Source of the DNA: an uncultured Planctomycetales bacterium
Lineage (GTDB): Bacteria; Omnitrophota; Gorgyraeia; Zapsychrales; Fredricksoniimonadaceae
Assembly: GCA_964492215.1 (NCBI GenBank)
Contig: CAZBJT010000001.1
Coordinates: 1-25,305, forward strand
Direction of reading: 5' to 3'
DNA length: 25,305 nucleotides
Shown here: piece by piece, positions 1-25,305 of the stretch
Numbering within the stretch: the first letter of the stretch is position 1
How the letters are laid out: every line of letters begins with the position of its first letter
Made by a program: the position numbers and the translations under genes
Notes under the pieces: generated by a model
What the model was told of the DNA's origin: nothing
Seen by the model: the letters and a program-made list of their open reading frames with translations, nothing else
Database searches by the model: none

Positions 1-3000
1 AAGATCGGATAAGCCTATCTTGATCCAATCCGCAGCTATTACATTAAAGCTATATAGATCTCTCTTGTATTTGGATTTTCCCTGCCCCATCCACGAGACT
101 AACGCTACCTGAGGCGTACCCGTTAACTCTACCAAGGTACATAACGCTTCTTCATCCGCTAAATAAAAGCGATCATCTTTTAATAAATGATGCTGAGCCT
201 CATGACGGGCAACTTGATAGGCAATATAGGCAAATAATTGTGTTGATGCAATAACAGGCAATCCTAATTTTTGTCGTTTATTTTCGATCATCTTTATTTC
301 ATGCCAACATTGCCGCACATCAACCACTGGCTCGGACCCATTAACCGTTAAACCCATAAACGATGCTCTTCCTTTAGTCGGGTATTCGGTCAAAGCAACC
401 CGCACTCGCTTATTTTTAGCGTCCGTATCAATATAAAAATGACCATATACATCTACAATATCAAATGTTAAATCGCTACCGTTAGCACAACAAATCAAGA
501 ATAGGCCCTGCGATTCCAAATACCTGTTAATAATAATTGTGCGACGGAGCAAAAAATTATCTCTTTTAAAGTCATCTTGCACCAACCTCTTAGCACCTTC
601 CCACAAATCCTGCACCTTATGCAATAAAAGTGCATCTTCCTTAAAATAGTTACGCATTTTCTCATCAGCCTGATCTGGAAAATCATAATGCACAATGATG
701 CCTTTTTTCTTACGTAATGATCTAGCTAATGAGGTTAATTTGATATTTTGTATAGGATGAAAGAATGGATTATCCAATACCTTGGCATAACGATGCGGCA
801 TGCGTCTGTTTAATCCCATGGTCATCAGTGTGCGCCCGAAGAGATGTTCATTCGCTTTGATCAATACTTGCAGGGACGGATTGTTTTGATATTCGGCAGT
901 GGCTTCAACATTGATAGGACGGCCATGGTTGGTTTGATGCCGCATGAAATTATTCATCCGGTGCACGGCCGTACGGTGTTCCGTAGAAAGATCGTGCTCG
1001 TCCATCCAAGCCAAGACCGCAGCAACGTCCGGATTATTATCATGCAGTGCTAAAAACTCCTCACGCGTAATGTCCCCATCGTGCAACCAGCGCTCTTCCC
1101 AAAGCGGGGCTTGTTCATAAATAACGGCCAACTGCTCCGCTTCTGTCCGGGCCATATTGTACCGGCGCATAAAATCAGCGGCCTGCCATTGTTTGGTCAG
1201 CCGGGCGTATTCTTCCACGGTCTTGGCAAAATACCTGGTTTTCCAATCATAGCCGGTGGATCGCGCACTTTTTAAAGCTGTGATATCACCGACGACGCAC
1301 ACTGATTCGTCAGCAAAACTGATGGCATCAATGAGCGGATCGATCTGATGGGTGTAACCGGCACGGGTAGGCTCTTTAGAACTGCGGGTCATGCCCACGA
1401 TAAGCACCGGCGTGCGCCTGGTTAAACCCTCCGGGATTGTCACCCGATTCGCAATAAAATCATGCAAATCCCCGGTGCTGCAATGCGCTGCAAGAGCGCC
1501 TTTCAAAAAGTCCTGCATCTGCTTGACCTGTTGAGGATAAAGGACAATAACGTGCATATCTAAGAGTGCCCTGCCCTGCTTTAAGAGCGACACGATCCGC
1601 CCCGCAATGACTTCCGCCTCATATTGATTAATGTATTGACCATCCACGACCGGTGCATCATATCGAGCCTCGCCGCCAATCACCGCTGTATCCACCACAT
1701 TAAACACCCCTGGATCAATGCGGCCGTAATGGTTGGCGCGTAGGCTCGGCTGATTACGCAGGCGGCCGACCAACTCACTGATGACCCAATGGCTTGGACT
1801 CAATGATGGCCCTGCCGGGCGTGCATACACCTCTTGCATTTTGCGGCGCACTTCAGCCACATAAAGGTTATATTGTTCTTTGCCGAGGCCTAATGGCTTA
1901 TCTAGGGAATGTTGGTAACGGGTAATTTCATCAAAATCATTTTCATTCAAGAGTCCGGCTTCGATAAACAAACGCATGCGGCGGCTCAAAGCGGAACCAA
2001 TGCGAAGAAAATGGGAAGAAAGCCCCAGGCCCTTGTTGACATTCCCTAAATAATTCCCCCAATTGATCCCAATGGCATTATCAAGAGAACTTAAATACGT
2101 ATTATTCAACCTTCCGATGATCTCTATCGGTGCTATCAGGGCCTTGGATTCTTCATTGATGGCAGCAACCAGCGCCCGGACCGCAGCTACCCGCACACGC
2201 GGATCCAGATTTTTCTCTACGGCGCGCAGCATAAATGGACTCAATGGCTGTTCGAATGCGTATAAAGTTTCTCCTAAGAACCGCAGTGGTACGCCGCCCC
2301 AAATGTCAAGCATCACATCTCTCAGGCAATTTCCCGATACCTGGGTAAACGGCACATTCCAGTCATCTGAAGGAAATTGTTCCTCTAAGTATGCGCGCAG
2401 TTCCAGCACTGAAGCAATATCCTCGCTGGCTTGAAGCTGGGCCAGGCGTTCTTCCAGATACCGGCGCCGATAGGCAAATGATGCTGATGCCCCGGCATTG
2501 ACATAGGTGCCGGGACCAAAAATTTCATCCACCATGCGCCCTATTTTCTTTCCAAACACGTCTACATAAAGCTTGTTCAATGCAGGCACATAAAGTTTGA
2601 AGATTGGACCTTTGTGCCAGGTGATGTGAAAAACAGTCAACTGTGTCGGGGAATCAATCAAAGAATCCGCATGCGGTAGTTCCTCTGGTTTCAAATACCC
2701 CAAGGTCACCAAATGGGCACGACGTTCCATGTATTGAGGCGAATAGAATTCCAATAAAGCGCATAAGGCTTCATACTGATCATTGGGGGCATCCCACCGT
2801 TTGGGATCGTTCCCATCAAACATCCACCGGGCCAAGACACGCGGTTTGCCGATGCTGAAACGTTCAATGACCAACGTAGGAAATCCCGCCATGATGATCT
2901 CCGGCAAATACACCCGATGGCGGACTAAATTGCGCTGCAGATTATGACTCAAATTATCGACGCGGGCATAGATGACCGCTTGAATACCTTGCGGCTGCAA

Positions 3001-6000
3001 TCGACCCCATGCCACCAGCTCATCGCGGACTTGCTTGATCAATGCTGCACGGGATACATCTCCGGTGCGCTGATGCGTAGGCTTCAAAACCGTTGCCAAT
3101 GTTTGGGGTAAATGGCCGTCGTGCATGGCATAAAATACATAGGATGCCTTTCCATTCGCCTGAGGAACAAAATCAGGGTCGATCAAATGTTCATGGCCGG
3201 ATGCCATTTGTTTCATCCTTTGGGCAATGGCATTTTGAACAGCGACCATTTTAGGCTTTCCCCCGCTCTTGTGTATTTTTTCCAATTCATCGATAAAAAA
3301 TGCATACTCGACGATCTCATTGAATAATTTATGCCACAAATCAAATAATTTGACCGCTTCACGATCAGTCATAAAAAGTTCGCGGCGGCTTTTCATGCGC
3401 ACGCGGCCTTCAAAAGGACTGTGCAGGAAACTCAATACTCGTCGTTCCTGCTCATATTTGATGTCTAATGCCTTGACCAAAGCAATCAATCTTTCTTGGT
3501 ATGGCGTTAGTTCACCCGCATGGACCTGTGCGTACCAGGCCACAAATTCCTTAATGTGCCGGTCTTCCTGTTCACCAATCAGTGTCAGATCTTTAAATGG
3601 CGGGATGTCGACATTAAAAAATAATAAGCCATGCTCCATCACCGGCAGCTTTATTCCCTGCGACGCCCGGGTGAATTCTGGGGAGGATGTTTTTTGCCAT
3701 TTGAAAAATGCATCAATTTTATCGTGCTGGTGAGCAATATAATGCTTAAGCGGGACAATGACTTGCTCACTGTATTTGCCTGCTTCTTTAATAGCCGCAA
3801 GGAAATCGTTCAAGGCGTGCGGCCTTCTTTCGCTTAAACCGGTGGGGTGATTTTCATCCAAGGCGTCATTATAAAATACGGCCAATGGGCATTTCTTCCC
3901 TTCAGCAGACAACAGGCTTAAGAAGTTGGCTTTAAATCCTTTCATCGTCGCTAAAAATTTGATTTCAGCACTGCAGGCCACAAATTCGGTATTGATCCTG
4001 TTAGGGTCATGCGGATCTCTCCAGTCAACTCCCGGGGCCCGGCTCATTAGAATCTCCGCCGCCTCATGCCAAAGCTTGGCGGTCAAATACACCACTAATG
4101 CCCGCCTTTGTTCATCACTGAATTTCTGCCAGAAGTATCCGTCACGGTCAAATATCTTCTTCCACTGGCCATTGATCTCGATTTGAAACGTACCATTACG
4201 CATACGGCGGGCCTGGGCCGCCACATGTACTGGCATTCGCGCCCACTTTAATAATTTTTCCTTACGCAATTTGTTTAATAAGTGCCGCATGGCATTTAAC
4301 GCCTGCCTGTGGTCTATGGCATAACCTAAAAATGGATTGTCCGGTATATTGATCAATTCAAAAGCTTCCTCCAATAACTCTTGATCGTCGATAGGAACGG
4401 CATTGTTTCCAACACCTTCATCTTCATAAGCTTCCTCGATATGATCTATCGTGATACCTTGGGAAGGACGCAGGGTAGATGTGACCGCCATGCCTCTTAT
4501 TTTTTTCACTATATCGAGCGGCAGGTGAAGTGTTGAGAGTGCGACGTCTGACATCTTGGCATAAAACATGCCGGACAAAGAAACCTGGTCTACGCCGGGC
4601 AATAAGCAGCCGCATTTCCACGCTGATTGCCTTAACAAAAATGCCGCCATGCGTGGATAAACCTTTAATATCTGGGTGACCGGCCCTAAAAAAGAGCCGA
4701 TGATCGGCAAGAAAGAAAAGGCGGCAGCCATGATGGCCGGTGACTTGCGCGTGACCCATAGGGTGATCCCCACCCGAATAGCCCCATTGAAGAAAACCCC
4801 CGCGACATACCATGGATTAAATCCGCCATGGATCAGCATCAGTATGGAAGCAAAATCAATGCCAGGGATTTTGATGAGATAAAATAAGAACAATGACAAT
4901 AATTCGATTAATTGCGGGTCTTTTAATTCAGCCCTGATCTCCGCCTCTTCTGCGACCGTGATCGTTCCATGAGACCTGGCTTTTGTGATCCTGTCGTCGA
5001 TCCATTTCCGGGTCAAAGTCTCTCGATAGCTAGGAATAAATACAATGCCATAAAAAAACAGCCCCATATCGTGCATGAGGTTTTCAATCCGTTGGGGCAG
5101 GCCTCTTAATACAGATTTCGATCGGATTTTAAAATCATGCCATAGGATAGGTAATTGTTTGTGTAAAAACCAATGGCGGTATTTATCGCGATTTATCTGC
5201 TCGCTCTGGCGCCATTGCTTGACCGACCATTCCAACCGGTCAATAACTGCGGCGGTGGCAGCATCCTTGGCTTGCGCGCGCAGCTTGATAAAATCAATGG
5301 CATCAGCGAACGGAAATAATCGCCAATGAGAAACCCACTTGTATATGTACCCCAGTTCAAGGGGCAGCATTAAAACCAATCCTCCAACCACACCTGGGAC
5401 GATATCCACTAAAACCATTTCACCTGTTGCCTCATTGATGAAAATATTACCCAAGGCATTAATGTTTAAAGGATCTGTCTGACGGGCCGTACCAAAAAAT
5501 CCGATGCCATCGAGGAATTTCTTGCGGCGGGATAATTCCGACAATGTGGTGGATAACTCACCCCAAAACGCCGGTGACGCCCTGGGCTGAATCTGTGGAC
5601 TGAATAAACGGGCCAATGGAAGATGAATACGGTTAAACCAAAAATCCTGGATCAGCGATGCATTAGGACTGGCCAAGCGCATGTGCCGGCCTTGCACAAA
5701 ATCATAAGCCTGCACGTAACTGTTAGTAGCTTCATCGAAACGTGTGTATATGACTCTCGGGGTAAGGTCTTTTCCCGTCTGGGCATGATAAAGGTCATTG
5801 ATCAACCCATTGGCAAAATGAGCGGTTAATACCGCGTACAAATTATGCCGATAGGCAAATGGTGCCTTCCGGATAAAACTATAAATCGTGTCCGCCACAA
5901 ACTTACCTAAGCCGGATTCCCTATCCATGCTGCCAAAATGCTTTTCAACATATTCCCGGCCTTGGGCATCTTTGACCAAATAAACAACCGAAGCCAACCC

Positions 6001-9000
6001 TGCCCCTAATTTCTTGATCACCGTACGTTCACCCACTGTGAAAGGATTACCTTTGGTATCAATGGCCCGGATGGTCGACGGCAGGATTTGATCAGGTTGT
6101 AAAATCGATTTTTTAGGTAATGCATATTCATCCGGCCAGCCAGAAGGAAATCCCACGGTCTGGACGGCTAAATCGAAATCAGCAAATTGCCCCGTAGGAG
6201 CTGCGACTGTTTGTGTGACAGGCTTAACGGTCTTAAACCCGAAGAAAATAAGCCCGCCATATAAGACAGCAGCGAGAATTAATAAAGCCACTGAGGCATG
6301 CGCTGCAAAAATAAAAACATTAAATACCGCCGTGGCAAATGCCAGCCATTTAGTCCACGGCTTTACGACCAATGCGGATTGATTATTTTGGTTTAGAAAA
6401 ATAGCTGAGGCAATAGCACTAAACGGCGAGATCATGCCCATCATGAATGTGCGGGTGGCTTCATTGGGGAAGAAATAAAAAACAAAACCGAACCAAATGG
6501 TCAAGACGATAAAATTCAACCGGGTCGCGTAAAGCATCCCCCGTGATTTCTCTTTAATGATGGCGCTCAATAAACCTTTTGTTTTGTGTTTGGCTTTGAG
6601 TTCTTCCCGCCGGCCCCAACTCTCCACCCAGCCATGCACAATCAAACTTAAAATAATGACGGAAATGGGTGACGTGGTGATTTGATCTGCCAGACCGCCC
6701 AGCCATAACGGCAGTGTTGCGGTCCATATCTCATAAGTCAGCGCCCAGAACCATCCCATGATGCCGACACTGAGCGGCAGCACCAACAGCTTCCACCGCC
6801 ATAAAGGTTTCCAGGTCACTTTTCCCTGCAGGCGCAAATGGATCAATTGGCCGATATATTCGCCTAATGTGATGAATATGGCCCAGCCGATGATCCCTTT
6901 AAGGCTGGCTACCATCAACAAGGCTTGCCACCCGCCTATATAAGAGAAGCCGGCTGGAAAAAACATTTTCTGAAATGATAATGGCTTGATTAGGTATTGA
7001 ATGAGTCCAAAGATGATCGCAATGGCCGTAAGGACAGTGGCGAAGAAGCGATCACCTATTTTTTGACGGGCGGCCTGGACTTTATGGTAGACACCCAGCA
7101 GCGGATTTCTTGAGACTGCTTGCTGCTGCATAGCTAATAGCGTCGGGTGTTCTGGAGTAAACAAGTGCGTGATATATGTATTTGTTACCGGTGTGCCATG
7201 CCATACGGCTTTGTTGTAGTCAGCATGGACTTTGGCGGCGGCCTTGATGCCTGCCCAGCGGACATCGGCCGGACTTTCTTGAGCAAGGAGTGCCGCTTCG
7301 CGCGCATGCTTATAGGCAAAGTCTGTGGCTTCACCTAAGGCTAAAAGTACATCAATTTGTGGGTTACTCGGATCTTTCACCCACCCTTGGTCTTTTACAT
7401 AGGCCTCAACATGGCCCAAAGCAAAATCCATAGGATTCCCACGTCTACCATTCTTGGCGGTGCGGTCGATCTCCTCTGTCAACGCAGCGACATCAAAAAA
7501 TTCATCCACCCTACCTTGTTTGATGGCCGACTCAAAGTCTTGCTTGTGTTTTTGCTGCAGCCCTAAGGGTGCAGTCCTTACTGCTGCACGCGCGGTAAGC
7601 AAATAAATAGCATATAAATGCGCTGTCTCAAAAGGCCGCACCCTTAATTTCTTCTGACTTAAAATCGCTGCGGTCAAATCCATGGCCCCATGAGAGCCGG
7701 CAACAACATACGGTTTATTCCAAGCCAATACTTTGGCCTGCGGCATGGCCTGGATCAATTGAACCGCACCCTGACCAAAACGATCCAAGGTTTTGCCCCG
7801 GCTGTCGCCATCATGCCTTTGCGTAAACGTGGGGCGGTGATCTTGTTCATAGGAATCCCGCCATAAAACAAAAGGCATGTTCCAAACTAACCGGTCAACA
7901 TCAGCCAATTCAGGACGCAAATGACCCTTTTCATCCACGATATTATCCGCCAATACTGCCTGCCTCAAGGGAATGCCCAAAAGCCGGGCCGTAAATTTGG
8001 TATTGGCTATCTCCATGGGATTAATACCCAATACACTGATGTCGCTTTTTCTTCCCCTTAATCCAAGGAAGACCGCCCAGGTATCAAAACCAGCACCGGG
8101 GCCTACAACCATAACATGATGGGATTCTTTTAAATCCAATGCTAAAGGTCGGTTGGCAACGATCGCGCTGTAATATTCCGCGTCTACATTTTCATCCCCG
8201 TTATTCTGTCCGAATACCGATGGAAAAATCGGAACAATGGCCCAGTGTGCACCATCATGAGCATCAGCCATGCCCCATTTAGATAATGCATCCATGCTTT
8301 TGGCCCATACTTGAAACTTGCCTGATTCAAGACATAGGCGCGTAAGGCGATAAGACAGATTACCTATACTCACCATATTAGAATCGACATTAAAATTGAC
8401 CAGCACCTCTTTTAATCGGCCCTGCATGAATATATATTCCTGATGATTGAGCCGCCAAATATTTTTAAATTGTTCATGGCCAGGCTGGGCTACTTCTGCG
8501 TGATAAGACGTTAAGTCAATGTAAACATTGTTAGGCTTTACCAGGCATCGCTTATCTGGAAAAATACCAAGCCAACGTCCGCACTCATCTTTGACTAACC
8601 AATAGGTCAAATAATGCTGATGGTCTTGCCCATAAAGCTCACGGGCCAGCCATGACCAGCCCGGGTGAGGTTTATTGCTGTTAGGCAATAACTTCTCAAG
8701 CGTGCATTCACCCACACGCAATGTTTGCAGGACATTCATGTGATTGAGTTGCAATGTTTCGGCGATGGCGGAGATTGGTGTGTCTTTAGACTGAAGATAT
8801 TGCACTGCTTGAGGTTTATTCTTATTATTAATCTGCGTAGTAATCATAAATGGGAGACTGGCAGCTAAAACTGCTCCTCCTGCTGCATGCATTCCCAGCC
8901 AAACATATGTAAATACAACTGCAATAGCGAAGAGTAGTTTTACCAATAACTTCTTATTAGTCTGCCTATGCATGGCATGACCTACAAACAACGGTTCAGC

Positions 9001-15000: not shown

Positions 15001-18000
15001 GGGCGGCTCGGTCTTGTTGCCTTGCCGGGCATTTATAACTTCATCCACAACGCTGTATGAAACTTTAGAAATGCACGAAATCTCCTTCATGGAATATTCC
15101 AATGCCGAATCCCGGATTTGGCGACGTAAATGTTTTTGAGGACTATCTTTCAGGGTATCCAGCGCCGTCTTAATCTTCTGATATGTAAAGAAAGTGGGAT
15201 GGCTGCGGCGACTTAAGATAAGGGCGATCGTTTGCCGCCTCACACCGGACAATTTGCTAATTTCATCTTGTGTATGTTTCAAGTCGATCTTTTTTTGAAT
15301 GTCCTCAATTAATGCATCCAATTGCTCGTGAGAAATAAGCGGTCCGGATGGTTTATGTGCAGGTCTTTCTCTTTTAGGCAGTTTAGCTACCTTGGCTGAT
15401 ATTTCTCTCGTTAATGCCCCATTTTTTACCTCTCCAGATAGCAGTCGCCTCAAACGACTAGAGCTGAGACCAAGATGTGCAGCTATTTCCAGCAATGTAT
15501 AACCTGCCGTTACTGCTTTATTAACGGCTTCCTTGCAGTGAACTAAAGACAAACTTATATCTTCAGGAGGCAGTTGGAATCGTTGTGGCTGTTGAGGCAT
15601 TGCTACCGCAGAAGGATGATCATTTGGAAAAAGAACTTCTAAAATAGCCTGGCGCCAATTAAATTTACGCATCTGCGTTTTCCTATGTGCAGGTATAATC
15701 TCTACATAATCTCCATCGATAGATTTTACATGGCCACCCACTAACCCCGCACCCGCTGGACCTGGATACCGTATTTGATCTCCCTCTTTAAGTTGATATC
15801 CTCTTTTTATTGCGTCCATCAACGGATGCCACTTTTCTAAATCCTCGTCTATGTGCAACAACAAACCTTTCCTTGCCTGATACACATTCCAGTTAAGCTC
15901 GAAATGCTTATCACTGGCGGCTGCCATGGCTATTCCGTTTACTTTGCGTTGAACTTCGGCAGGTAACGTAACCGGTACACGGCTGGCAGGATAAAAATCT
16001 CTCAATGCCAGCTCACGGGCTGCTTCATAAGCTAAATCAACAAGGGTCGCCTGCTCATATAAAAAGTCCCAATCAGCTTGTTTGGCATCCCGCCAATCCA
16101 TCTCAATCAAGTCAAAAACCCTCTTATGTTTTAAAGCAAATGCCCGACGGGAATTTTCATCTCTTTTATAGCGACGGGGTTCTTCTTCTCCTCTTGCCGC
16201 AAGGCGCATATATTCTTTAACAGCAGCATCACCGGCAGCTAATGCGATTCTCAGCCCCGGCGCATACGCCTGTTGCATAGCCAATAAATGGTGACTGTCA
16301 CCATTTATTTTGCGTTGGATGCGGGTGATATGGTTGCGCCAATTGATGTGGAGGATAAAATCGCCGTCGTCCCAGGCGCGCAGGGTTTCGAGCATTAACG
16401 GAGGGCCGTTTACGTCTGGTTTTTCAGAATTGACGCAATCGTATATATTAGCGGCCCGCACCTTTTCGAGAGGTTGGACGGACAAAGCTGCAGCTGACTT
16501 TAATGTCTGCGCCATGGGCAGGTCGATATCTTCAAATCTATCGCCGACAATCACGGTACGGCGCATATCAAAAGATGTTTTGAAATATTTCTCCAATACT
16601 TTCCACTTGCGTAAATACCTTAAGCTTTCCCCTTTGTCCCAAACAAATTCTACCGATCTTTTAGTTAGGGGATCTCTTATCTTTATTGTTTTGCGAGGAG
16701 TAAACAAAAGCATGGTTTGGCGTACGAAAAAAGCAAAAGATCTTAATAAAACATCCAGATTAATAATTTCCCGCGTCAATGGCCATGGGGTTATCGGCGC
16801 AAATGTGCCATTACGGACATCAGTGAGTCGATGGGCATAAGTAACCCGGGACAGAACGATCACTCGGGAACGCACATCTTCATCCAACAGGCTGATCCAA
16901 TCCTGCCAAATGTCTTTCTCATCATCAAGACTATTAATGACCTGTATACCGCCAGTGTGCAAGAACCGGTTGTATTCTTTGACCAATTCTTCTTCTGTCT
17001 GGAAACGCCATTTCCCTCCCTCTTCCACCGGCTCATAAACCAGCGTGCCGCGAAAATCATCGACGCGGATCATTGATGCCGATGAAGTGCGCATATTGAT
17101 CAAACCCAAATCATAGGCTAAATGTTTAAAGACACGGGTCAAATAGCCTTGAGATAAAGGCACGCCATAGGTGAAAAATAAACGCAGGGCTTTTTGCTGC
17201 GGGGGGGCATAATCATGCCAGCGGATCAATGTTTCCGTATGGCCGAATGACCGGGCCGCTTCTTCAATAAAGACAGCGCCGACAAAAACAATCGCCGCCA
17301 ATGCTATCAATTTCCACCAGATGAAATATCCGCCAACAACCATGTGTAATATCAATTGTGAAATACCCACTACTAATAAAATCAAGGCGGGATAGCGGAA
17401 CATGGGTAGCATGGCCTGAGGAGAGTCCGTTTCTGTCGGTTGATCTTTTGGTGCCCTGGCCCAGCCTTTTTCGGCGATCTGTTCCGGCGTAAGACCCAAT
17501 TCACGCAAATAATGCCAATAGGTCGGCCACCACTCCTTAGCGAATGAAATCGTCGTGTATACCGTTGGTAATTTACGTGCTTTCCAACCCTTAAAAGTAA
17601 GATCAGGTGCGGCTGAGCCTAAATTATCGCGACCCGCCTGTAACAAAGCCTCTTTGGTCCATTTCGTTGCACCCTGGCTTTCCCTGGCACTCATGTCCTT
17701 CTGACGCTTGGCCAAAGCTTCTTCATCTGCCAATTGATGCTGTTCAGCATAGCGGCGGACTTTCCGACGGAAAATGGATTTCCAATCCCGGATCTTCTGC
17801 TGTTCTAATGACGTACCGCCATGCCGATTTTGCCAATTCATACGGATAGCATCATGAGAACTTTGCTTCAAATACCCCTGCAAGGCGCTATCGTTCAACA
17901 GGACAAATTGCTCATCCTCAGTCAATTCAATTTTCATCTGCCTCACTACGTTCAAAGGCATACATAACTCTGCCATTAATGCCTCAAGCCCGTCTTTGCC

Positions 18001-21000
18001 CTCTTTGACAATTTCCAATGCCGCCTTTAACAAACGTCGTATTGATTGAGACGAAAGGTCTGCAATGGGCCCTGCTAGAAGATTTTCCGCATCCAAGGTT
18101 CTAATCACTGTTACTGGGTCAATATTTTTCTCACGATTGACCCCTGTTAATAACTGCAAAATTCCTCGGTGCACAGCCAAAAGATACGGCCAGGTCTTTA
18201 ACATTTTCTCCTCGGTAAAACCTTCCGTGTATGATGCGGGATATGTTTCCATCACCCGTGCATGGATAAGCTTGATATCATCTATCGTAGACGGCACCTC
18301 GACATGCAAAGACCGACGCCCGGTTATGACAAAACCCAAAATCATCAGCACCATATTTTTACTAAATTGCTCATCGCCTAGAGCGGTATACAAGTAGCCC
18401 TCTATTTTTAATGCTTCTATCGCACCGTCAGATAATCCACTCAACGTCTTGATCTCTTCCAGCGAATATCTTTCTTGGGATGATTTATACACTTGATTCC
18501 AAATGGCGCGAAAATGGTCAGGACGGTCGGTGGGCAAAGCGCCAAAAATAACAGGCAATGTTTCAATCAAGACATCCGTAAGATCATCTTTATGGTGGGC
18601 TTCAATAAGGCTTAGCGGCACAGCCCTGTTGTGGACCTTCGAGAATTGCCAACGGGCACGTGGTGCTGCATCAGGATTTTCTCGCAACTCTTTAAGCAAG
18701 TAAATTTGAACTTCTTGGGTTGGTTCATATGTTACAAAAACCCCGTCCATCGTGACTTCAGGTAAGGCTGGAACAAAAAATAATGCGTATCGGAGCTTCT
18801 TCTGTTGGCTGGAGACGACTTCTGACTTGAAACATTCTTGGCCATCTAACCCTTGGCCTGTTGTAAACCATGCTCCTATGCGATCGACCATGGCATTGAC
18901 TTCTTCACCATTCGACTTTCCCGCACGATACTCTAAAAGAGAACCGGTTAATGCCTTCTTGCCCAGGTTAAGAGGACTTTCTTTAACAGGTTCAGTGGTG
19001 ATCGCTGCTTCAACAACAACGGAAGCAGGGACAATAACAGTGGCATCGGATTCTTCTGGAGCAGGCGGAGCCCTTGGCGCTGCCGGCTCAGGTGTGGGTG
19101 ATACTAGCTCTGGTTCAGACGCAGGTGCAAGTACAGGTAGTGGTTTTGGTAAAGAATTGGTAGACGCTACCAATTCTTTTTGGGCTGCCGGCGGTGTTCT
19201 GGGTGAAGGGATGGGGGTGGTGCTTGTTGGGGGGATGATTTGCCGGGTATGGCCATTGTCTCTCATGAGTTTTACAATCTGTCCCTTTTTCTCGGCGATC
19301 ACATGGACGACTTCCCCTTCAAAACGCATAAACTCGCCTAGAAAATCATGACCATCAAATATAGCCAATATCTCTACCGGATAAGCCCGACGGCTAAATG
19401 TGACAAGCCCGGAATCCCGACGTGCACCTTGACTGCCTTTGGCAAAAACGAAACGTAATGGACTGCCTCCTACTACCGGGATTTCGATTACACCCTGGTG
19501 CAAGCGGGCAGAATAATCAGAGATATCCGACAACTCTGCCCCATTACGATACCATGTCGCCAAAGCAATGGATTGTGCATCGTCCAGATCAGGCTTAATT
19601 CCTGCGGAGGCTGCATCAGCGGCCGCCCCAGAGGCATCTGTAACAGTCTCTTCTGCAATACCAGCTGCTGGTTGCGGATCAATAAAAGAATTGGTAGACG
19701 GCACCAATTCTTTTGCTGGGGCGGGGATGATTTTGGCTTTTGTTCCGTCTTCCATGACTTGATGCACGATGACGTTCTCTCCCCGTCCTGTAACTACGAC
19801 ACGGATCACTTGGCCTTCGAAACGCATAAACTCGCCTAATACCATCCAATGACCTGACACTTCTCTTAACACCTGTAACGTCTCTACGTTATCAGAATAA
19901 AACTTACGGCTTAGCGTAACTTCACCGTCGGGTATGTCATTGCCTGTATTGTCTTTGAATAAACGGAATTGTAATAAACTAAAATTCGGCACCACGATGT
20001 TAACATCCGAATAGACCGGCCATTTTCGTTTGTCCATTTCGATCAGACTTGCAGGCTTAAAAGGGGTGCTCTCAATATGGGCCGGATAATCTCCAAATGA
20101 AAGTGCATGACCTTCCTGATGATACCAACGGGCCAATGCGGGAAAATCAGCATTGCTCATACGTAATTCTTTCATCACTTCCTGTATAAATGCATTGTTT
20201 TTCCAATCAGGATGTTCAGCCAAATTAGAAAGCAAAGCGAAGCGCGCACCTGGTAAATTCTCAAACCTTATGGCATTTCTTACCTCAACCCATACGGTTT
20301 GCGGGCTCTTGAGTTTTTCATCTTGGTAAACATCAATGACCACTTGCGCAATGTCCACATCAATATCCAACTTGGCATTAGCTTCATCCAAATGGTCGAC
20401 GATACGCACAAAATAATCTAACAAAGCTGAAGCTTTAGGTGCGGTCAATATTTGATGGTTACCGGCATGGGTACGAAATATATCAATGCCGTCGCTTATT
20501 TCCTTCAAGTTTTCCATGGTGGGTGGATTTAGAAAATTAGGGATATCGGTAAGCTGCACCGCAGCAATTTGGGCTTGAGTCCCAGCTATATCTAAAGCAC
20601 TTTTAAGTACGGCGGATTTACGGGCCACACTTTCGGCCCTCTCTTGCTGCACAACAACCTCGCCTTCCTTCGTTGCCATGGGGACTTGCATGTTGCTTAA
20701 AACGTTGACCAGCGCACGGCGACCATCCTGCTTCACCTTAAGCAGACGTGCCTCTTCATCCCGAAGAGCTTTGGCGCGGCGTTCTTCACGCTCTTGGTCT
20801 AACAGGCGCATCAAGGCATCGAATTCTTTTAATTCCTCGGGGAATCCTTCTAAAGCTTCACGCACAGTACCAACCAATGGCAGGGCTTTTGCATCATGAT
20901 CGCCGCTGATCAAGGTCTCGATCTCATTACCCCGCTGGGCAACTAGGGTATCGCGCACCCGACGGGCTTCGGCTTTTTCCGCTGCTTCTTTGGCCTCTTT

Positions 21001-24000
21001 AGCTAAACGCACATCATCACGCCGTTTGAATTCTGCCTGACGTAATATTTTTACCTGTGCATTAAATGTGGTGAGCTCATTGGCATCTTTAAGTAATCGT
21101 TGTGCTTCCTGGATCAATTCATTGACTTGTGCATCTTCGATTTCTTTAGGTAATGATGTTTTGATAGCAGCAATGGTTTCATTCACATACCCGGTGATGG
21201 CAAGTGCGCGCATGGGTTTAAGAATCTCTTTGCGGCGGTTGCCCGCTTTTTCCCATAGCCCATGCAACAATCTCCAGGCTTTCTGCATCTCACCTTTTTC
21301 CATATGCAAACGGCAATCGGCTAAATTTTGTGAATCAGAAGGTATAGATGTAGTGGTATTAATCACTGCAGCAAACCATGTCCCTATGGCCTGAAGGGTA
21401 CGGGCAAAATCATCGGCGCTCTTAACACCGACGACAGGTTTATCCAGGCGTTGTTTCCATGCCCTTTGTTGTGCGGCCATTTGCTGCATGCTTTCAGCTT
21501 TGGCTTCAGTCAACGGCTGAACAAAAGCTTCGCTTAAAAAACCATTAGTCTGATCTGAACTTCCAGTCAAGGCCCCACGGGTTGCATACCGGCTGCTCAA
21601 GGCCTGCTCAAGGGACGTGTCGTACAAAGCTTCATAACGCCCGCGCACAAAGTCATAAGCACCGGCGACATTATGAGATTTAGGGCCCAACATTGCATCA
21701 GTCAGGATAGCTATGCCAAGTTCAAAGAAAAATGCCGGGCGCGTACTCTCAGGCAAAGATTTTACTAAATGCCTTAATTCAGGCAATGCAGCCAGCCATG
21801 CCGGGGCTAATTGTTTGTCGAGTTTTTTGGTAAATTCTTCCATACCGTCGGCAGGTATCAACCAAGCCCCTGCGGCATCACGGGCTAACCCTAGAGCAAT
21901 AAGCGGCCAATACATTTGGCAGGCATCGGATTTTATTAATTCGACGATTGTTCTCTTCTGCTCAAGGATCTTCCAACGCTTTAAAGCTTCAGGTTCGGCG
22001 ATATCCCATTGGGCGATTTTATTGAAGGTGCTGGAGATTTCCGGCAGCTTGGGGACGGTCACTTCCACCGTGGCTGGTACTTGCTGTACGGGGGGTTGAG
22101 CATCCTTAGCCCCTTCTGGGTCTGGATTCCCGTTGTCACGGGAATGACATTCAGGGACAATAACGGCAGCTTCAACTTCCGCTGTTATAGGTGCTTCAGG
22201 CTTTTCTTCTTTAGCTGGTTCTGGTTGCTCTGGGGCCGGCTTCTTTGGCTCTGGTTCTTTTGCAGGCTCTGGTGTTTTCGGAGTATGGACTTTTACTTCT
22301 TTCATTTTTTCCACCGGCAAGGCTTCTTCATACTGAGTCAAATCGCCTAAATCAATACCCTCGGTATGCCTTAAGGTATTGCGTACAATCTCCCGGGCTT
22401 CGGGCCATTCAATGGGTTGCGCGCTTTTCTTCGTTACTTTCTTACGGGCAGCAAACTCTGTTAAAACACCTTCGAGCAAAGGCAAAGGTAATTGCCCAGC
22501 TACGTGTGCTTTAGCCTGTGCTTGTTTTGGACGTGCCACCGTATCGCTTTGATAATCCGGCCATAACATTTCCATCACCGCATAACGCAATAATTCCAAA
22601 GAATTAATATCGGCAAACATCCGGGAATCTTCCACGGTAAGGGGATGGCCAAAGTCTTCCCTGGATAACTCATCTGCCAGGCGTTCCGATGCATTAAGGG
22701 GGTACGGGACCATTTGCACAATATAGCCATGATTGTCAAAACCAGCCTTCAATCCCTGGCGCTGCTCGTCGATGCTGCGCAGCTGTAACGGCCTGGCTAA
22801 GGCCCGGGCTTGCAGCACATAAGCCATGGCATCCAAATACCCTTTCACATTCCCTAATAAAAGCGCATCCCGGGCTTTGTCTTCCCAATAATAGGCGCGT
22901 GTCAGATAAATCCAACTATCTAATTCAGGACGGATATGTTGGATGCGTACATTGATCGTACTTTTACTTCCATTATCGGCCAGGCGCTTAGTTAATTGTT
23001 CCTGCAGTGCAATCGCATAATCGTATAAAGCTACGGTGAATGCTTCGCTTTCATTGCGCGCGATGATATCACGTAATTTATTCCAAGCATTACTCAATCC
23101 TGAGGCAATGACACCTTGCTCATACCTGCCAAAAATTATTTCTAGTTTAGTTTGATTCTTAAACGCGATTTGACGCATAAAAGTCATATTCATCTGCTCG
23201 CTGCCGACGCGGTCGTTTAATTGGTATGTCTTCTCATCGGATTGATAAAGGATAGGACGGTAATCATTAGGGACCATCAAATACACAACCGCTTGTTGGG
23301 GCTCAGGAGAATCCGTGACTTGCCGGACTAATTCATTGACCTGTTCATCCAAAGCCGGACGCAAGGCCTCTAAATTTACCTTGTGGAATGAATCCACCGG
23401 CAGCACGACATGGCGATTACCCTTGCCGCCTAAATATTGCGGTTGAATAAACCCAGCTAAAATATCTTGCGGGATACCTAAACTTTCTAACCATGCCACC
23501 GCTAACCGGGGCGCTTGGGCTTTTTCAAAGAGCAAAGATTCATCCAAACCACCGGTCACCGCATCATCAGCTTTATGCTTTTCTAAACTGCGGATAAACT
23601 CCAAAATTTGATCATCGGTTAAATTGGCACAGAGCCGATCAAAAGCCCTGGCTTGCTCACTGATACTTTGGGGACGGATATAATCAAGCAAGATATTCCA
23701 TAAGGCCTCACGGATAAATAACGGCAAAGCAGCCTGTACATCTGCCTCGGGTGTCAGTGTGCTTAAGTCTCGCTTAATCGCCGCTTGGACTAATTTAGAC
23801 TGGATGGGAAAATCTTCTTCCGTATATTGCCCTGCCCGTTCCACATGAATACCTTCTTCAGATAAAAGACCGTCTAAGTCCAAATATTTATTGGTCAACA
23901 TCAAACAGCGCGAGCGCCCTTCTTTATAATCTGCCATCTTCTGTGCATATTGGTTTAAGAAGGCTATTTGATGCTGATGAATGCGGCCGGCATAATACAT

Positions 24001-25305
24001 ACGGGCTGCATTCTCGCCTGCATAAACATCCCAGTTTCCCCTGCGTAATGCATTTTTAGAAGTGTCATTAAAAGCACCGGCGATAGTGGCCTCCATAATG
24101 GCACGATGAAAATTCTCGGAAGGTAAGGCATGGTCAAGTTGGATCCTAAAACCAGGCCAAGTCTTTTTCCAAATAGGAAGCTGGGTGGTTAAATATTGCA
24201 TTAAAGCCTTATGGAATTCGGTGTGCCCCAAACCTGCCTGCTCAGCTTCAGATATGATGAAGTTCTGATCGTCATTCATAGGCACTTGAACATACTTCAC
24301 ATTATTTCTATAAATCTGCTCAGTCTTCTTTGCTTCTATGCTCAAGTCGACAAGTTCCAAAGGTTTAGTTGTGCCGAGGATCTTTTGCCTAAGTTTTGAT
24401 TTTCCGTCAACCCCTTGAATGGATTTGAGCGCATAAAAAGGAACCTGCACCGTCAATGTTACCGGTTCCTCCGATGGAGGCACAGAATTCAAGAGCACCG
24501 TAATGGCCGTATCAATATTCGCACGCGCCTTTTTAAAATCCTCCGCCCCCTCAATATCAGCATACACCCGGGCTAAATGCGGACCAGGCACGGTCACGGC
24601 CGATGACTGCGCAGCCCCATCAATAGGTGTCGTCATAGTAGCCGCCAAAGAATTGGTAGACGGCACCAACTCTTTTGTAGCTTGTTCTAGTACGCATAAG
24701 GGCTCTTCGGGCAAAGCGGGTTGGTGCGTTCTGCTCCAGGCTAAAATGTCTTGGGCCGTCCATTCATATTTATTGTCCGCGGCATACCTGGCTTCATTAT
24801 TCTTGATCAAAGTTTTAATTTGATCTGGATCAGCAGCTTTAACAATTTTCTGTACGGCATGGCTCCATGCCCTGAGGGGCATCATGCCGTTATGCTGGAA
24901 TGCACCGAAGGCGTGTACTAAACCTAATAATATTACCTGCCGGTATTTCTCAGCCTCGGGCATGTCCACCTGCCATGTCCGGGCAATAATCATATTATCT
25001 TGATAAGGGATTTCATCTAAACGTAAACCAGATGCAAGAATGGATTTTCCCGGAATCTTCATCTCTAATGCTTTAACGACATCTTCCGTAGAACGATAAT
25101 ACGTAAAAGGCTGCCCCAGCAGGACATGGCCAGGTTTTTTCAAGAGCTTATTTAATATTTCAACGTGCAATTGGTCAAAATACTCACATGTCTTAACAAG
25201 GGCATCCATTGACGCGATCCTGTAACGCGCATAATTGGCTAAATCCCCTTTATGCCAGAAATCAAGGGCCGCATGCTCAAGCACCAAGTAGCACACGCGA
25301 CTGAC
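1..25305 (-). CDS. Internal fragment (>=8,435 aa, open at both ends) of a giant multidomain membrane-associated protein
   Basis: Manual translation of the minus-strand frame over all lines found no stop codon, from VSRVCYLVLEHAALD (25305) to ...DWIKIGLSDL (1). Many family motifs and TM segments fall in this single frame. No start or stop lies in the window. Confidence 0.97.
130..700 (-). other. Zincin-like metallopeptidase domain (HExxH) within the giant CDS
   Basis: QLFAYIAYQVARHEAQHHLL (HEAQH at 190-204), preceded by strand-like VYGHFYIDTD and followed by LADEEAL, a candidate third-ligand Glu. Boundaries approximate. Confidence 0.6.
1270..1790 (-). other. Degenerate SF1 helicase C-terminal RecA-like domain (DNA2/NAM7/UPF1-like, AAA_12-type)
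   Basis: Motif order SHWVISELVGRL...FNVVDT...YINQYEAEVIAGRIVSLLKQG...HVIVLYPQQVKQM...VLIVGMTRS...AGY...IDAISFA...VCVVGDITALK parallels the AAA_12 pattern, but motifs V and VI are degenerate. Confidence 0.7.
4000..4240 (-). other. Zincin-like module with HExxE...H variant
   Basis: ALVVYLTAKLWHEAAEILMSRAPGVDWRDPH (HEAAE at 4054-4068, His at ~4009). Confidence 0.4.
4680..5400 (-). other. Hydrophobic/transmembrane block C-terminal to the kinase-like domain
   Basis: Hydrophobic stretches VVGGLVLMLPLELGYIY, MGLFFYGIVFIP, LIELLSLFLFYLIKIPGIDFASILMLIHGG, VAGVFFNGAIRVGITLW, AIMAAAFSFLPIIGSFLG. Confidence 0.6.
5390..6030 (-). other. Protein-kinase-like (Ser/Thr kinase fold) domain
   Basis: Gly-rich loop VIKKLGAGLASVVYLVKDAQGREYVEK (5941-6020), hinge-like YDFVQG, catalytic-loop-like TDPLNINALGNIFI and Mg-binding-like MVLVDI (~5401-5415). 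Confidence 0.75.
6250..7060 (-). other. Multi-pass membrane block, possibly Mpv17/PMP22-like
   Basis: About 6-8 hydrophobic helices. KGIIGWAIFITLGEYIG and IWFGFVFYFFPNEATRTFMMGMISPF resemble my recollection of Mpv17/PMP22-family N- and C-terminal patterns. Confidence 0.45.
7650..8240 (-). other. Class I SAM-dependent methyltransferase domain (HemK/MTS-like)
   Basis: Motif I HVMVVGPGAGFD (8089-8109), motif II-like VLGINPMEIANT, motif IV VDRLVWNMPF (7870-7884, NPPY/F-like), N-terminal IVPIFPSVF. Confidence 0.75.
8830..8950 (-). other. Transmembrane helix/hairpin
   Basis: KKLLVKLLFAIAVVFTYVWLGMHAAGGAVLAASLPFMI. Confidence 0.6.
9070..9520 (-). other. GNAT-like acetyltransferase domain
   Basis: Motif A-like ALLRANVDPDFRGGRMKFLL (9283-9306) and motif B-like LTKHFGFCP (9169-9180). 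Confidence 0.55.
9850..10260 (-). other. Membrane-embedded M50/site-2-protease-like metalloprotease domain
   Basis: Hydrophobic helix ending in TPVHELGHLLAA (HELGH at 10192-10206), LLAGFIANF (AGPxxN-like), further TM helices, then LPN...EGD as a candidate third-ligand Asp. Confidence 0.7.
11240..12150 (-). other. Alpha/beta-hydrolase domain (FrsA / 2,6-dihydropseudooxynicotine hydrolase-like)
   Basis: WAKTWKKYA...SIPFDGHLDIPAYL...VVTFPGIMANKE...DLPGQG...IDASRIGVAGFSLGG (nucleophile elbow 11635-11652), LLGREDRLI (Asp ~11380), SGQNHY (His 11278-11280). Confidence 0.85.
11319..11343 (-). repeat. REP-like palindromic hairpin copy A (opposite orientation to B-D), translated in frame
   Basis: ttaattggtag-cgt-ctaccaattaa: perfect 11-bp stem with 3-nt loop; its core is the reverse complement of copy B. 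Reads LIGRRYQL in the CDS. Confidence 0.75.
12250..12480 (-). other. Degenerate zincin-like module (HE without second His)
   Basis: KPFLAWHKSRKEDVLMMHWQFVELVHEVVRY; the RKEDVL segment matches RKEDDVL of the module at ~14180. Confidence 0.35.
12690..13270 (-). other. Shikimate-dehydrogenase (AroE)-like NAD(P)-binding Rossmann domain
   Basis: DLVFLGAGASAHFWARAI (13042-13062), IFVFDADQRKAKQL, AVFNFMVPGLRG and KTVVDMNCDLPVFLTKAAMAGAEV follow the AroE C-domain motif order; the N-terminal substrate domain is not clearly recognisable. Confidence 0.6.
13980..14230 (-). other. Zincin-like module with HExxE...AH motif
   Basis: YGPPKEFIWARKEDDVLAIYF...LQVIAFHEITELEFMQSHSPQEAHRLA (HEITE 14062-14076; EAH 14023-14031). 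Confidence 0.5.
14818..15504 (-). other. Array of four tandem helix-turn-helix motifs
   Basis: GYTLLEIAAHLGLSSSRLRRLLSG (15433-15504), HTQDEISKLSGVRRQTIALIL (15214-15276), YSMKEISCISKVSYSVVDEVI (15034-15096), IARKAKVDLGTIRAILKG (14818-14871), with basic linkers. Confidence 0.75.
16490..17075 (-). other. HAD-superfamily-like domain, variant motif I
   Basis: IRVDDFRGTLVY (17041-17061; DxDGTL-like), GGIQVINS (motif II-like), TVIVGDRFEDID (16528-16554; motif IV). Confidence 0.55.
17250..17400 (-). other. Two transmembrane helices ending in EExxR
   Basis: YPALILLVVGISQLILHMVVGGYFIWWKLIALAAIVFVGAVFIEEAAR. Confidence 0.6.
17490..17664 (-). other. Single homing-endonuclease-associated-repeat-like unit
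   Basis: KWTKEALLQAGR...GWKARKLPTVYTTISFAKEWWPTYWHYLRELGL resembles the 'wt.e.i....lPs..ti...f.sW...l...G' pattern as recalled. Confidence 0.4.
18970..19260 (-). other. Pro/Ala/Glu/Thr-rich low-complexity linker
   Basis: IIPPTSTTPIPSPRTPPAAQKELVASTNSLPKPLPVLAPASEPELVSPTPEPAAPRAPPAPEES. Confidence 0.85.
19151..19179 (+). repeat. REP-like palindromic hairpin copy B, translated in frame
   Basis: aaagaattggtag-acg-ctaccaattcttt: perfect 13-bp stem. Reads KELVASTNSL in the minus-strand CDS. Confidence 0.85.
19230..20150 (-). repeat. Tandem duplication of an uncharacterised ~160-aa module
   Basis: ALARWY..GH/ALATWYRNG; VTLSRK/VTFSRR; LGEFMRFEGQVIRV/LGEFMRFEGEVVHV; both units end in IIP. DNA 19316-19340 and 19814-19838 are 24/25 identical, offset 498 nt. 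Confidence 0.8.
19684..19714 (+). repeat. REP-like palindromic hairpin copy C, translated in frame
   Basis: aaaagaattggt-agacggc-accaattctttt: 12-bp stem. Reads KELVPSTNSF. Confidence 0.85.
20200..20420 (-). other. Possible degenerate PD-(D/E)xK nuclease-like domain
   Basis: DIAQVVIDVYQDEKLKSPQTVWVEVRN: D...ExR in place of D...ExK (20275-20295). Confidence 0.3.
20640..21330 (-). other. Charged coiled-coil/helical region
   Basis: E/K/R/A-rich helices such as LAKEAKEAAEKAEARRVRD and LLDQEREERRAKALRDEEARLL. Confidence 0.6.
22020..22330 (-). other. Pro/Glu/Lys-rich low-complexity linker
   Basis: TPKTPEPAKEPEPKKPAPEQPEPAKEEKPEAPITAEVEAAVIVPE. Confidence 0.85.
22780..23100 (-). other. TPR-like helical region
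   Basis: SWIYLTRAYYWEDKARDALLLGNVKGYLDAMAYVLQARAL and FTVALYDYAIALQEQL show TPR-like amphipathic patterns. Confidence 0.35.
24100..24480 (-). other. Possible PD-(D/E)xK (restriction-endonuclease-fold) domain
   Basis: PIQGVDG...LELVDLSIEAKK (IEAK at 24328-24339) fits G-x-D...E-x-K. Confidence 0.4.
24647..24675 (+). repeat. REP-like palindromic hairpin copy D, translated in frame
   Basis: aaagaattggt-agacggc-accaactcttt: one stem mismatch; one substitution from the core of copy C. Reads KELVPSTNSL. Confidence 0.8.

Follow-up and report, generated by a model that had tools for sequence, protein, structure and literature searches.

The stretch of DNA analyzed here, positions 1 to 25,305 of contig CAZBJT010000001.1 (25,305 nucleotides in all, hereafter the window), is occupied from edge to edge by a single open reading frame (ORF) on its minus strand, and we are highly confident that this frame belongs to a genuine giant protein-coding gene from a bacterium-like organism. 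In the six-frame translation, minus-strand frame 0 (the reverse complement read from base 25305; window coordinates 1..25305) comprises 8,435 codons and contains not one TAA, TAG or TGA. This bears out the original prediction that one minus-strand frame is open across the whole 25.3 kb, with no in-frame stop having been overlooked. Since the frame is open past both window edges, the gene must extend beyond the 25.3 kb seen here, as had also been proposed; its start codon and stop codon both lie outside the window, which holds an internal slice. The absence of the ORF from the ORF track, remarked on in the same prediction, is explained by the lister, which omits ORFs that run off either end. 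Throughout, residue i of the polypeptide corresponds to window positions 25305-3i+1 .. 25305-3(i-1). All protein features described below are on the minus strand and are given by their window coordinates, with amino acid (aa) positions in parentheses.

The probability of encountering no stops in 8,435 codons, as calculated from base composition, is ~1e-208. The remaining five frames have 298–618 stops each, with a longest open run of 213 codons, and TAA, TAG and TGA are all abundant in every one of them, so that stop-codon reassignment is unnecessary to account for the open frame. The order GC1>GC3>GC2 (GC content by codon position) is seen in every 1,000-codon block of the frame, and codon usage correlates between six blocks of the frame at r = 0.80–0.91, versus r = 0.09–0.13 against shifted frames. 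The frame is genuine protein-coding sequence. The uniformity of its codon usage, together with the lack of long repeats, argues against an assembly chimera.

Every recognizable domain is located in the open frame, as had been claimed, and the eight largest ORFs in other frames (120–199 aa) have no Pfam match. No tRNA, Rfam family or taxonomic marker gene was found in the window, and promoter-like and terminator-like consensus sites are present in it at or below the shuffle expectation, with no enrichment.

Module A, the helicase remnant and module B

An exhaustive HMMER search with aa 7236–8435 (the C-terminal 1,200 aa, or one-seventh of the protein) against 1.84 billion representatives identified five proteins, P0001–P0005. 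Two of these, P0001 (1,513 aa; E = 1.8e-68, 248 bits) and P0002 (2,286 aa; E = 1.4e-44), share with the giant a conserved domain of unknown function of ~570 aa that we refer to as module A, at 1897..3606 (aa 7234–7803). The identity to P0001 and P0002 is ~30–32% over 360–530 aa, and the motif R[YF]SIGKxRxLARWMF..DPxRW is invariant. In the free-standing P0001, a complete Upf1-like superfamily 1 (SF1) helicase (AAA_30/AAA_11, with AAA_12 scoring 87 bits) comes after module A. In P0002, what comes after module A is sigma-70 region 4, a pair of RpoA C-terminal domains and helix-hairpin-helix (HhH) motifs; this protein (L009 30–6890) also has three ~200-aa repeats at its N-terminus and is a large and unusual DNA-binding protein without a known function.

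Module A precedes a RecA2 domain in both the giant and P0001. In the giant, this domain is represented by an SF1-helicase RecA2 remnant at 1180..1794 (aa 7838–8042), which scores 20.3 bits against AAA_12 (aa 7889–8007; cut-off 27) and 36 bits (E ~1e-14) against the helicases P0001, P0004 and P0005, the latter two being ordinary SF1 helicases that match only aa ~7887–8034. The gap between module A and RecA2 is 35 aa in the giant versus ~525 aa in P0001, where it holds RecA1 with Walker A/B. No Walker A motif (GxxxxGK[ST]) was found near the RecA2 remnant of the giant. When RecA2 is aligned, the giant shows TIPEGLTRRT at motif V (TxDSFQGxE), with QGxE lost, and LIDAISFADE at motif VI, with the arginine lost. 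Lacking RecA1 as well as motifs V and VI, the helicase-derived part should not be able to act as an ATPase, and from its sequence we judge it to be an inactive remnant from which neither ATPase nor helicase activity is expected.

The remnant is followed by module B, at 832..1179 (aa 8043–8158), which is shared with P0003 (E = 3.1e-13, 58.9 bits). P0003 (L010 3–4352) represents the C-terminal 1,449 aa of an HExxH protein rich in transmembrane (TM) segments, the gene being cut by the contig start, and it is followed on L010 by PilZ and MutL genes. The L010 locus correlates with the window at r = 0.74 in codon usage and at r = 0.84 in tetranucleotide composition. A 71-aa C-terminal match to P0003 was also noted on the 196-kb contig L016 (15392–20450), which resembles L010 in its gene order in that a large gene (2,347 aa, continuing beyond the locus) is followed by PilZ and, further on, by MutL; L016 (GC 0.54) was considered as a related contig and rejected as unrelated.

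For the protein as a whole, peptide-pattern scans of 185,579 GTDB species representatives, and of the IMG/VR and JGI metagenome collections, detected no close relative, and scanning IMG/VR with the module A alignment returned nothing. In tblastn searches with the whole protein there was no match to phages and one weak, hydrolase-type match to plasmids (29% identity, E = 8e-4), while PADLOC and PHROGs gave helix-turn-helix (HTH) and esterase noise only.

Membrane segments, domains and linkers

The polypeptide is non-repetitive, with Tandem Repeats Finder reporting two trivial arrays only, and its amino acid composition is ordinary. The curated libraries (Pfam, NCBIfam, PHROGs, PADLOC and PDB sequences) recognize little of its 8,435 aa. 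In a Kyte-Doolittle scan (KD19) at the stringent threshold of KD>=2.0, nine segments were called versus 2.3±1.4 in shuffled sequence, with none of 200 shuffles reaching nine. A TM hairpin of two helices lies at 17266..17388 (aa 2640–2680; KD19 2.35 and 2.36), a single TM helix at aa 5453 and a block of ~7 TM helices at 6262..7044 (aa 6088–6348). No other 270-aa stretch of the protein is as hydrophobic as this block, which has seven peaks in 300 aa (shuffle maximum 5) and a mean hydropathy of 0.83 (shuffle maximum 0.58). The scan placed three further TM-like segments at 4678..5415 (aa 6631–6876). Judged by the scan against its shuffles, the polypeptide is indeed inserted in the membrane at several places.

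An alpha/beta-hydrolase domain at 11206..11988 (aa ~4440–4700) is apparently intact and is the lone solid enzyme domain of the slice. It matches PDB entry 9w30 (E = 7.4e-7) as well as S33/esterase structures, and is also weakly matched by Pfam and PHROG. Its nucleophile elbow GFSLGG (Ser 4554) aligns with GFSMGG of 9w30 and its histidine motif GQNHYF (His ~4686) with GANHIF; the catalytic acid is probably the D in GREDRL. A probable array of about four HTH units occupies 14716..15522 (aa ~3262–3530). One unit, HTH_3 (PF01381, XRE-type), is above its gathering score (31 bits versus a cut-off of 23; aa 3342–3383); it is flanked by weak HTH matches at aa 3266–3289 and 3470–3496, and one further unit was assigned by pattern alone.

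The remaining domain candidates are weaker. At 9907..10218, a HELGH motif (aa 5034) precedes a pair of strong TM helices (aa 5090–5133; TM scores 2.91 and 2.02). The arrangement is reminiscent of an M50/site-2 protease, but the score against Peptidase_M50 (PF02163) is below threshold (14.8 bits, cut-off 27.2), the match to RseP has E = 0.95, and no clear instance of the second (N/L)DG motif of M50/site-2 proteases was seen after HELGH. A second HExxH motif occurs at aa 8368. A possible Rossmann-like beta-alpha-beta stretch with GAGASA, at 12706..13083 (aa ~4075–4200), was identified by this motif and by a weak match to Sacchrp_dh_NADP (E = 0.13); the beta-alpha-beta pattern appears in a structure model of low confidence (predicted local distance difference test, pLDDT, of 37). 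Kinase-like (aa ~6420–6650) and methyltransferase-like (aa ~5740) calls were made by eye and no tool supported them. The slice had been described as multi-enzyme and multi-TM. The second part of that description holds, given the nine segments and the seven-helix block, but the first is weakly supported: the hydrolase is solid, the helicase is seemingly a dead remnant, and the M50-, Rossmann-, methyltransferase- and kinase-like calls are sub-threshold or by eye.

Two linkers of biased composition were found by a composition scan. One, Pro/Glu/Lys-rich and of low complexity, also evident in the sequence itself, is at 22102..22308 (aa ~1000–1068) and the other, Pro/Ala/Thr-rich, is at 18943..19254 (aa ~2018–2121). 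The short motif ..A[TA]VIVP.. occurs after both Pro-rich linkers, with 73% DNA identity over 33 nt between positions 19026–19058 and 22152–22184 of the window. There are thus hints that pieces of linker plus flank may also have been copied within the gene.

In-frame hairpins and internal duplication

The peptide KELV[PA]STNS[LF] appears three times in the giant (aa 212, 1866 and 2044), and each time it is the reading of a DNA palindrome. The palindrome is 29 nt long, AAAGAATTGGTAG-ACG-CTACCAATTCTTT, with perfect stems of 11–13 bp, and represents a hairpin family of 21–29 nt with the core AATTGGTAG-NNN-CTACCAATT. Four copies of this family lie in the ORF, in two orientations and two frames, versus 0 expected in the window by chance, and the z-scores of their RNA folds range from -2.9 to -4.9. 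Copy 1 (AAAGAATTGGT-AGACGGC-ACCAACTCTTT), at 24647..24675, encodes KELVPSTNSL (aa 212–221) in a linker-like stretch and folds with -18 kcal/mol (z = -3.3). Copy 2, at 19685..19713, encodes KELVPSTNSF (aa 1866–1875; z = -4.9). Copy 3, at 19151..19179, encodes KELVASTNSL (aa 2044–2053; z = -4.9) and has a 13-bp perfect stem with a 3-nt loop. Copy 4 (TTAATTGGTAG-CGT-CTACCAATTAA), at 11319..11343, is reversed in loop orientation and, from another reading frame, encodes ELIGRRYQL (aa ~4655), inside the alpha/beta-hydrolase domain and immediately before its His-bearing strand. Because four of the six possible readings of the hairpin are stop-free, the observed frames are no proof of targeting. The window also has, in-frame at 16282..16312 (aa ~3000; RNA fold z = -4.3), a perfect palindrome of another sequence (AATAAATGGTGAC-T-GTCACCATTTATT). 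Its layout, 'A-rich...TGGT / ACCA...T-rich', is similar to that of the four-copy hairpin, and it could be a divergent member of that family.

Three other interpretations of these elements were rejected. KELVPSTNS is not a protein-level motif or cleavage site, as it is the product of a DNA palindrome that is also found in another frame and orientation. An uptake-sequence-like 9-mer was discarded because AATTGGTAG never occurs outside the hairpins and the isolated 9-mer is not enriched. A tRNA-derived origin was likewise dismissed, as the resemblance to the D-arm of tRNA-Leu in two metagenome contigs with matches to the core (L003 and L007) looks like a coincidence and ARAGORN found no tRNA in these loci.

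Copies 2 and 3 are associated with the only duplication of its kind in the slice. A domain of ~150 aa is present as unit 1, at 19690..20139 (aa 1723–1872), which contains GEFMRFEG, and as unit 2, at 19156..19566 (aa 1914–2050). By BLASTP the two units are 33% identical (E = 1e-14), consistent with an old, diverged tandem duplication. Hairpin copy 2 is at the end of unit 1, and copy 3 closes unit 2, inside the Pro/Ala/Thr-rich linker. The DNA of the two units, when aligned, is roughly half identical apart from the hairpin and an island at GEFMRFEG; this island (19301–19340 versus 19799–19838) is 85% identical over 40 nt. The two hairpin copies are identical at 27 of 29 nt. Near-identical hairpins in diverged units imply nucleotide-level conservation of the hairpin or its renewal, and their equivalent positions in the duplication mean that they may be conserved, and not newly inserted.

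An exact scan for the hairpin core found it in seven JGI metagenome contigs and in no GTDB genome or IMG/VR contig. Four of the seven (L001, L002, L005 and L006), from two related samples, carry a perfect palindrome. The matches in L003, L004 and L007 look like chance or like tRNA-Leu D-arms, with about one chance match expected for the pattern. In three of the four contigs with a perfect palindrome (L001, L002 and L006) the hairpin is at a gene 3′ end: in L001 it overlaps the end of an ORF terminating ...KKELVASTN-stop beside aroK, in L002 it lies between two convergent genes, and in L006 it abuts a stop codon. The L001 ORF (1172–1615, minus strand) is of ordinary size at 147 aa and ends ...PKKELVASTN-stop, with the palindrome at 1174–1194. 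There, the hairpin supplies the last residues and the stop codon through the variant ACCAATTAA; in the window, the same frame runs on through the variant ACCAATTCTTT. The hairpin-bearing contigs carry aroK, a prepilin-peptidase-like gene and a dienelactone hydrolase gene. Their relative synonymous codon usage correlates with that of the window at r = 0.79, compared with 0.80–0.87 for same-size subsamples of the giant and 0.21–0.45 for unrelated loci, and their tetranucleotide composition at r = 0.85.

These positions suggest that in a related lineage the hairpin behaves as a 3′ element of repetitive extragenic palindromic (REP) or terminator type, and that it is translated in the giant. We propose that a terminator- or REP-like repeat of the host lineage gave rise to the four in-frame hairpins, as copies that were tolerated in, or inserted into, coding sequence. 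That the hairpin also marks how the giant gene was built or remodeled is a rather doubtful idea, which could take two forms. The hairpins in linkers may be fossil gene boundaries, that is, former gene ends, with giant genes growing by loss of stop codons at 3′ hairpins. Alternatively, the element may be a selfish 29-nt palindrome, a 'mini-RPE', that colonizes coding sequence in-frame and is kept by nucleotide-level selection in the mRNA, where it might, for instance, provide a pausing or processing site required for expressing a message of >25 kb. Among elements already described, its closest counterparts are Rickettsia palindromic elements (RPEs), which insert in-frame into genes, and REP/SPRITE elements, which are terminator-like or extragenic repeats (PMC10969869). 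The hairpin resembles RPEs in being a multi-copy palindrome that is read through in-frame in a coding gene and adds a conserved peptide; RPEs are ~100–150 bp, however, whereas the hairpin is 21–29 nt. The resemblance to REP/SPRITE terminator-like repeats (PMC10969869) lies in its location at gene 3′ ends in other contigs. If the hairpins are functional or mobile, they would constitute an unusually small in-frame repeat element.

Origin, function and comparison with known giant proteins

The explanation that we favor, with moderate confidence, joins a real giant gene to a mechanism in which its product is a cytoplasmic scaffold. The gene would have grown via in-frame accretion of formerly independent genes, some modules later decaying into scaffold, and the C-terminal part may have been derived from a gene of the type 'module A plus SF1 helicase'. 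Accretion of neighboring genes followed by duplication and decay is suggested because module A and the helicase-derived part have free-standing homologs of ordinary size, the helicase has lost its active parts, the protein contains an internal duplication and terminator-like hairpins are read through in it. Where TM helices are paired, the chain would come back to the side from which it entered the membrane, leaving the bulk of the polypeptide on the cytoplasmic face and tethered to the membrane at several points. We expect most of the mass to be cytoplasmic because most of the TM helices are paired and because the HTH, Rossmann-like, helicase-derived and module A parts are cytoplasmic in kind; module A is counted among these because its relatives fuse it to DNA-binding and RNA-polymerase-type domains. 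Such a scaffold might hold together, in fixed stoichiometry, nucleic-acid-binding modules, a serine hydrolase and perhaps also an HExxH protease in the membrane. The architecture would be that of the 'TM-only' class, which is the commonest among long Omnitrophota proteins: of those of at least 10 kAA (thousand aa), 94% bear TM segments or a signal peptide and 46% are TM-only (doi 10.64898/2026.06.07.730766). The functional picture of a membrane-anchored cytoplasmic scaffold is tentative, a possible role more than a probable one.

Several points weigh against this explanation. Accretion is suggested by a single module with free-standing homologs, and the exhaustive search had limited coverage, being confined to the C-terminal part. 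A word-indexed search of 5.8 billion proteins was empty, which is a weak negative since that search is insensitive: it failed to return P0001 and P0002 despite both being in the query alignment, and it also missed P0001 where exhaustive HMMER gave 248 bits, so that an empty result from it with a long or divergent query is no sign that homologs are lacking. The Kyte-Doolittle scan by which TM segments were called is a crude predictor, and at a loose threshold (KD 1.5) there is no excess, with 15 segments versus 13±3 in shuffled sequence. About 85% of residues are without an assignable domain. Single-sequence AlphaFold2 models of aa 5690–6720 and aa 3990–5160 had pLDDT values of 40 and 37, respectively, and are unusable, and the best Foldseek match to the PDB had E = 0.09.

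Several other explanations were considered. The protein could be an 'Archaeovorin-like' giant of Omnitrophota, exported or surface-exposed and serving prey or host attachment and cell-wall degradation. Giant, non-repetitive, TM-bearing and poorly annotated ORFs are commonest in that phylum and are mostly singletons, the window shares their general look, and the hydrolase and HExxH modules could be degradative. Omnitrophota giants are typified by SecA_DEAD, C39/S8 peptidase, glycosyl transferases/hydrolases, NUDIX and dockerin/TSP3 (West-Roberts 2023, doi 10.1101/2023.11.21.568195), however, and the 8,435 aa of the slice contain no such domain. SecA_DEAD and the SecA preprotein-binding domain had no match even at E<=1, although they could be outside the window or too divergent; glycosyl transferases and hydrolases, methyltransferases, peptidases and NUDIX were absent at Pfam/NCBIfam threshold; and no C39, S8, dockerin, TSP3, starch synthase or histidine-kinase ATPase domain was found, the N-terminus, where a C39 or S8 peptidase near a signal peptide would be expected in such giants, lying outside the window. 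In addition, no close relative was found among the GTDB species representatives, the window has no taxonomic marker, the recognizable modules (HTH array, SF1-helicase derivative, Rossmann-like stretch) are cytoplasmic in kind, and the relatives of module A carry sigma-70 region 4, RpoA C-terminal and HhH DNA-binding domains, not adhesion domains. We consider this explanation unlikely, and an Omnitrophota origin and a predatory role are neither supported nor refuted by the content of the window. It is also improbable that the ORF encodes a polyprotein, translated once and then cut at its linkers by its own HExxH and serine-hydrolase modules or by host proteases. The two HExxH motifs (aa 5034 and 8368), the serine hydrolase and the long Pro-rich linkers would suit such a product, the recurring linker peptide KELV[PA]STNS could be the cleavage site, and self-processing by C39/S8 has been proposed for Omnitrophota giants; but the recurring peptide is explained by the DNA palindrome, whose fourth copy is in the other frame and orientation, and no protease family reaches its threshold.

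That the gene belongs to a virus, plasmid or eukaryote, and not to a bacterial chromosome, is very improbable. The window contains no feature that settles which replicon or which domain of life it comes from, and huge proteins are commonest in eukaryotes (PMC11573180). Against this, the whole-protein tblastn searches gave no phage match and one weak plasmid match, IMG/VR yielded nothing, the HTH_3 and SF1-helicase relatives are on compact, prokaryote-type contigs beside PilZ and MutL, the hairpin is shared with contigs bearing aroK, the prepilin-peptidase-like gene and the dienelactone hydrolase gene, and the frame has no intron-like interruption. We give almost no credence to an artefact, whether an assembly chimera or decaying, non-functional sequence that merely lacks stops. 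The helicase remnant is clearly degenerate, and no matching contig was found in the collections searched (GTDB, IMG/VR and JGI), yet 25 kb without a stop has only the minute chance probability given above; decaying sequence accumulates stops; a chimera would require all junctions to be in-frame and within an ORF; codon usage is uniform, with no long repeats to seed misjoins; and module A retains its invariant motifs at ~30–32% identity.

The finding alone has no bearing on predation or host dependence. What the slice adds is a well-verified, almost unannotatable example of a recently recognized class of giant bacterial genes, and it illustrates why such genes go unseen, since ordinary ORF and gene callers do not list an ORF that runs off the contig on both sides. 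Its anatomy offers testable hints on the evolution of giant genes, namely a module that also exists free-standing, a helicase whose ATPase half is lost, an old duplication and terminator-like hairpins that are read through. It is this evolutionary anatomy, along with the unusual in-frame hairpins, that we regard as the added value of the present example.

The slice fits the landscape already described of giant, non-repetitive, TM-bearing and poorly annotated ORFs, its membership of Omnitrophota being unproven. Proteins of >5,000 aa are also known from Planctomycetota, Elusimicrobiota, Lentisphaerae and Peregrinibacteria (PMC11573180). The closest parallels are with the TM-only or Pfam-dark proteins of at least 10,000 aa of Gorgyraeia (Omnitrophota) (West-Roberts et al. 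2023, doi 10.1101/2023.11.21.568195; Nielsen & Lui 2026, doi 10.64898/2026.06.07.730766). Like these, the slice is a stop-free ORF of tens of kb, a non-repetitive mosaic with about one TM helix per 500 residues, and, also like these, it is mostly unannotated, without close relatives, and of a kind that standard gene callers miss or cut short where contigs end. Among Omnitrophota proteins of at least 10 kAA, the Pfam-dark fraction is 15%, and at 30% identity 80% are singletons (doi 10.64898/2026.06.07.730766). Unlike the Gorgyraeia giants, the slice lacks their recurrent domains and has a tandem HTH array and a seemingly dead SF1-helicase remnant, and the length seen here, at least 8,435 aa, is below the 10-kAA tier.

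Omnitrophota giants of the Archaeovorin type resemble the slice in their numerous TM helices (here nine at KD19>=2.0 and the seven-helix block), whereas dockerin-type giants differ from it, as the slice has no such Pfam matches and no tandem repeats. The megasynthases of nonribosomal peptide and polyketide synthesis likewise have >5,000 aa in one ORF (PMC11573180), but the slice has no condensation, adenylation, ketosynthase, acyltransferase or carrier domains. Repeat adhesins are also >5,000 aa (PMC11573180), and their Ig-like, cadherin, RTX or tandem repeats are absent from the slice. Proteins of the P0001 type, finally, differ in that module A is there part of a protein of 1.5–2.3 kaa, while here it is embedded in an ORF of at least 8,435 aa.

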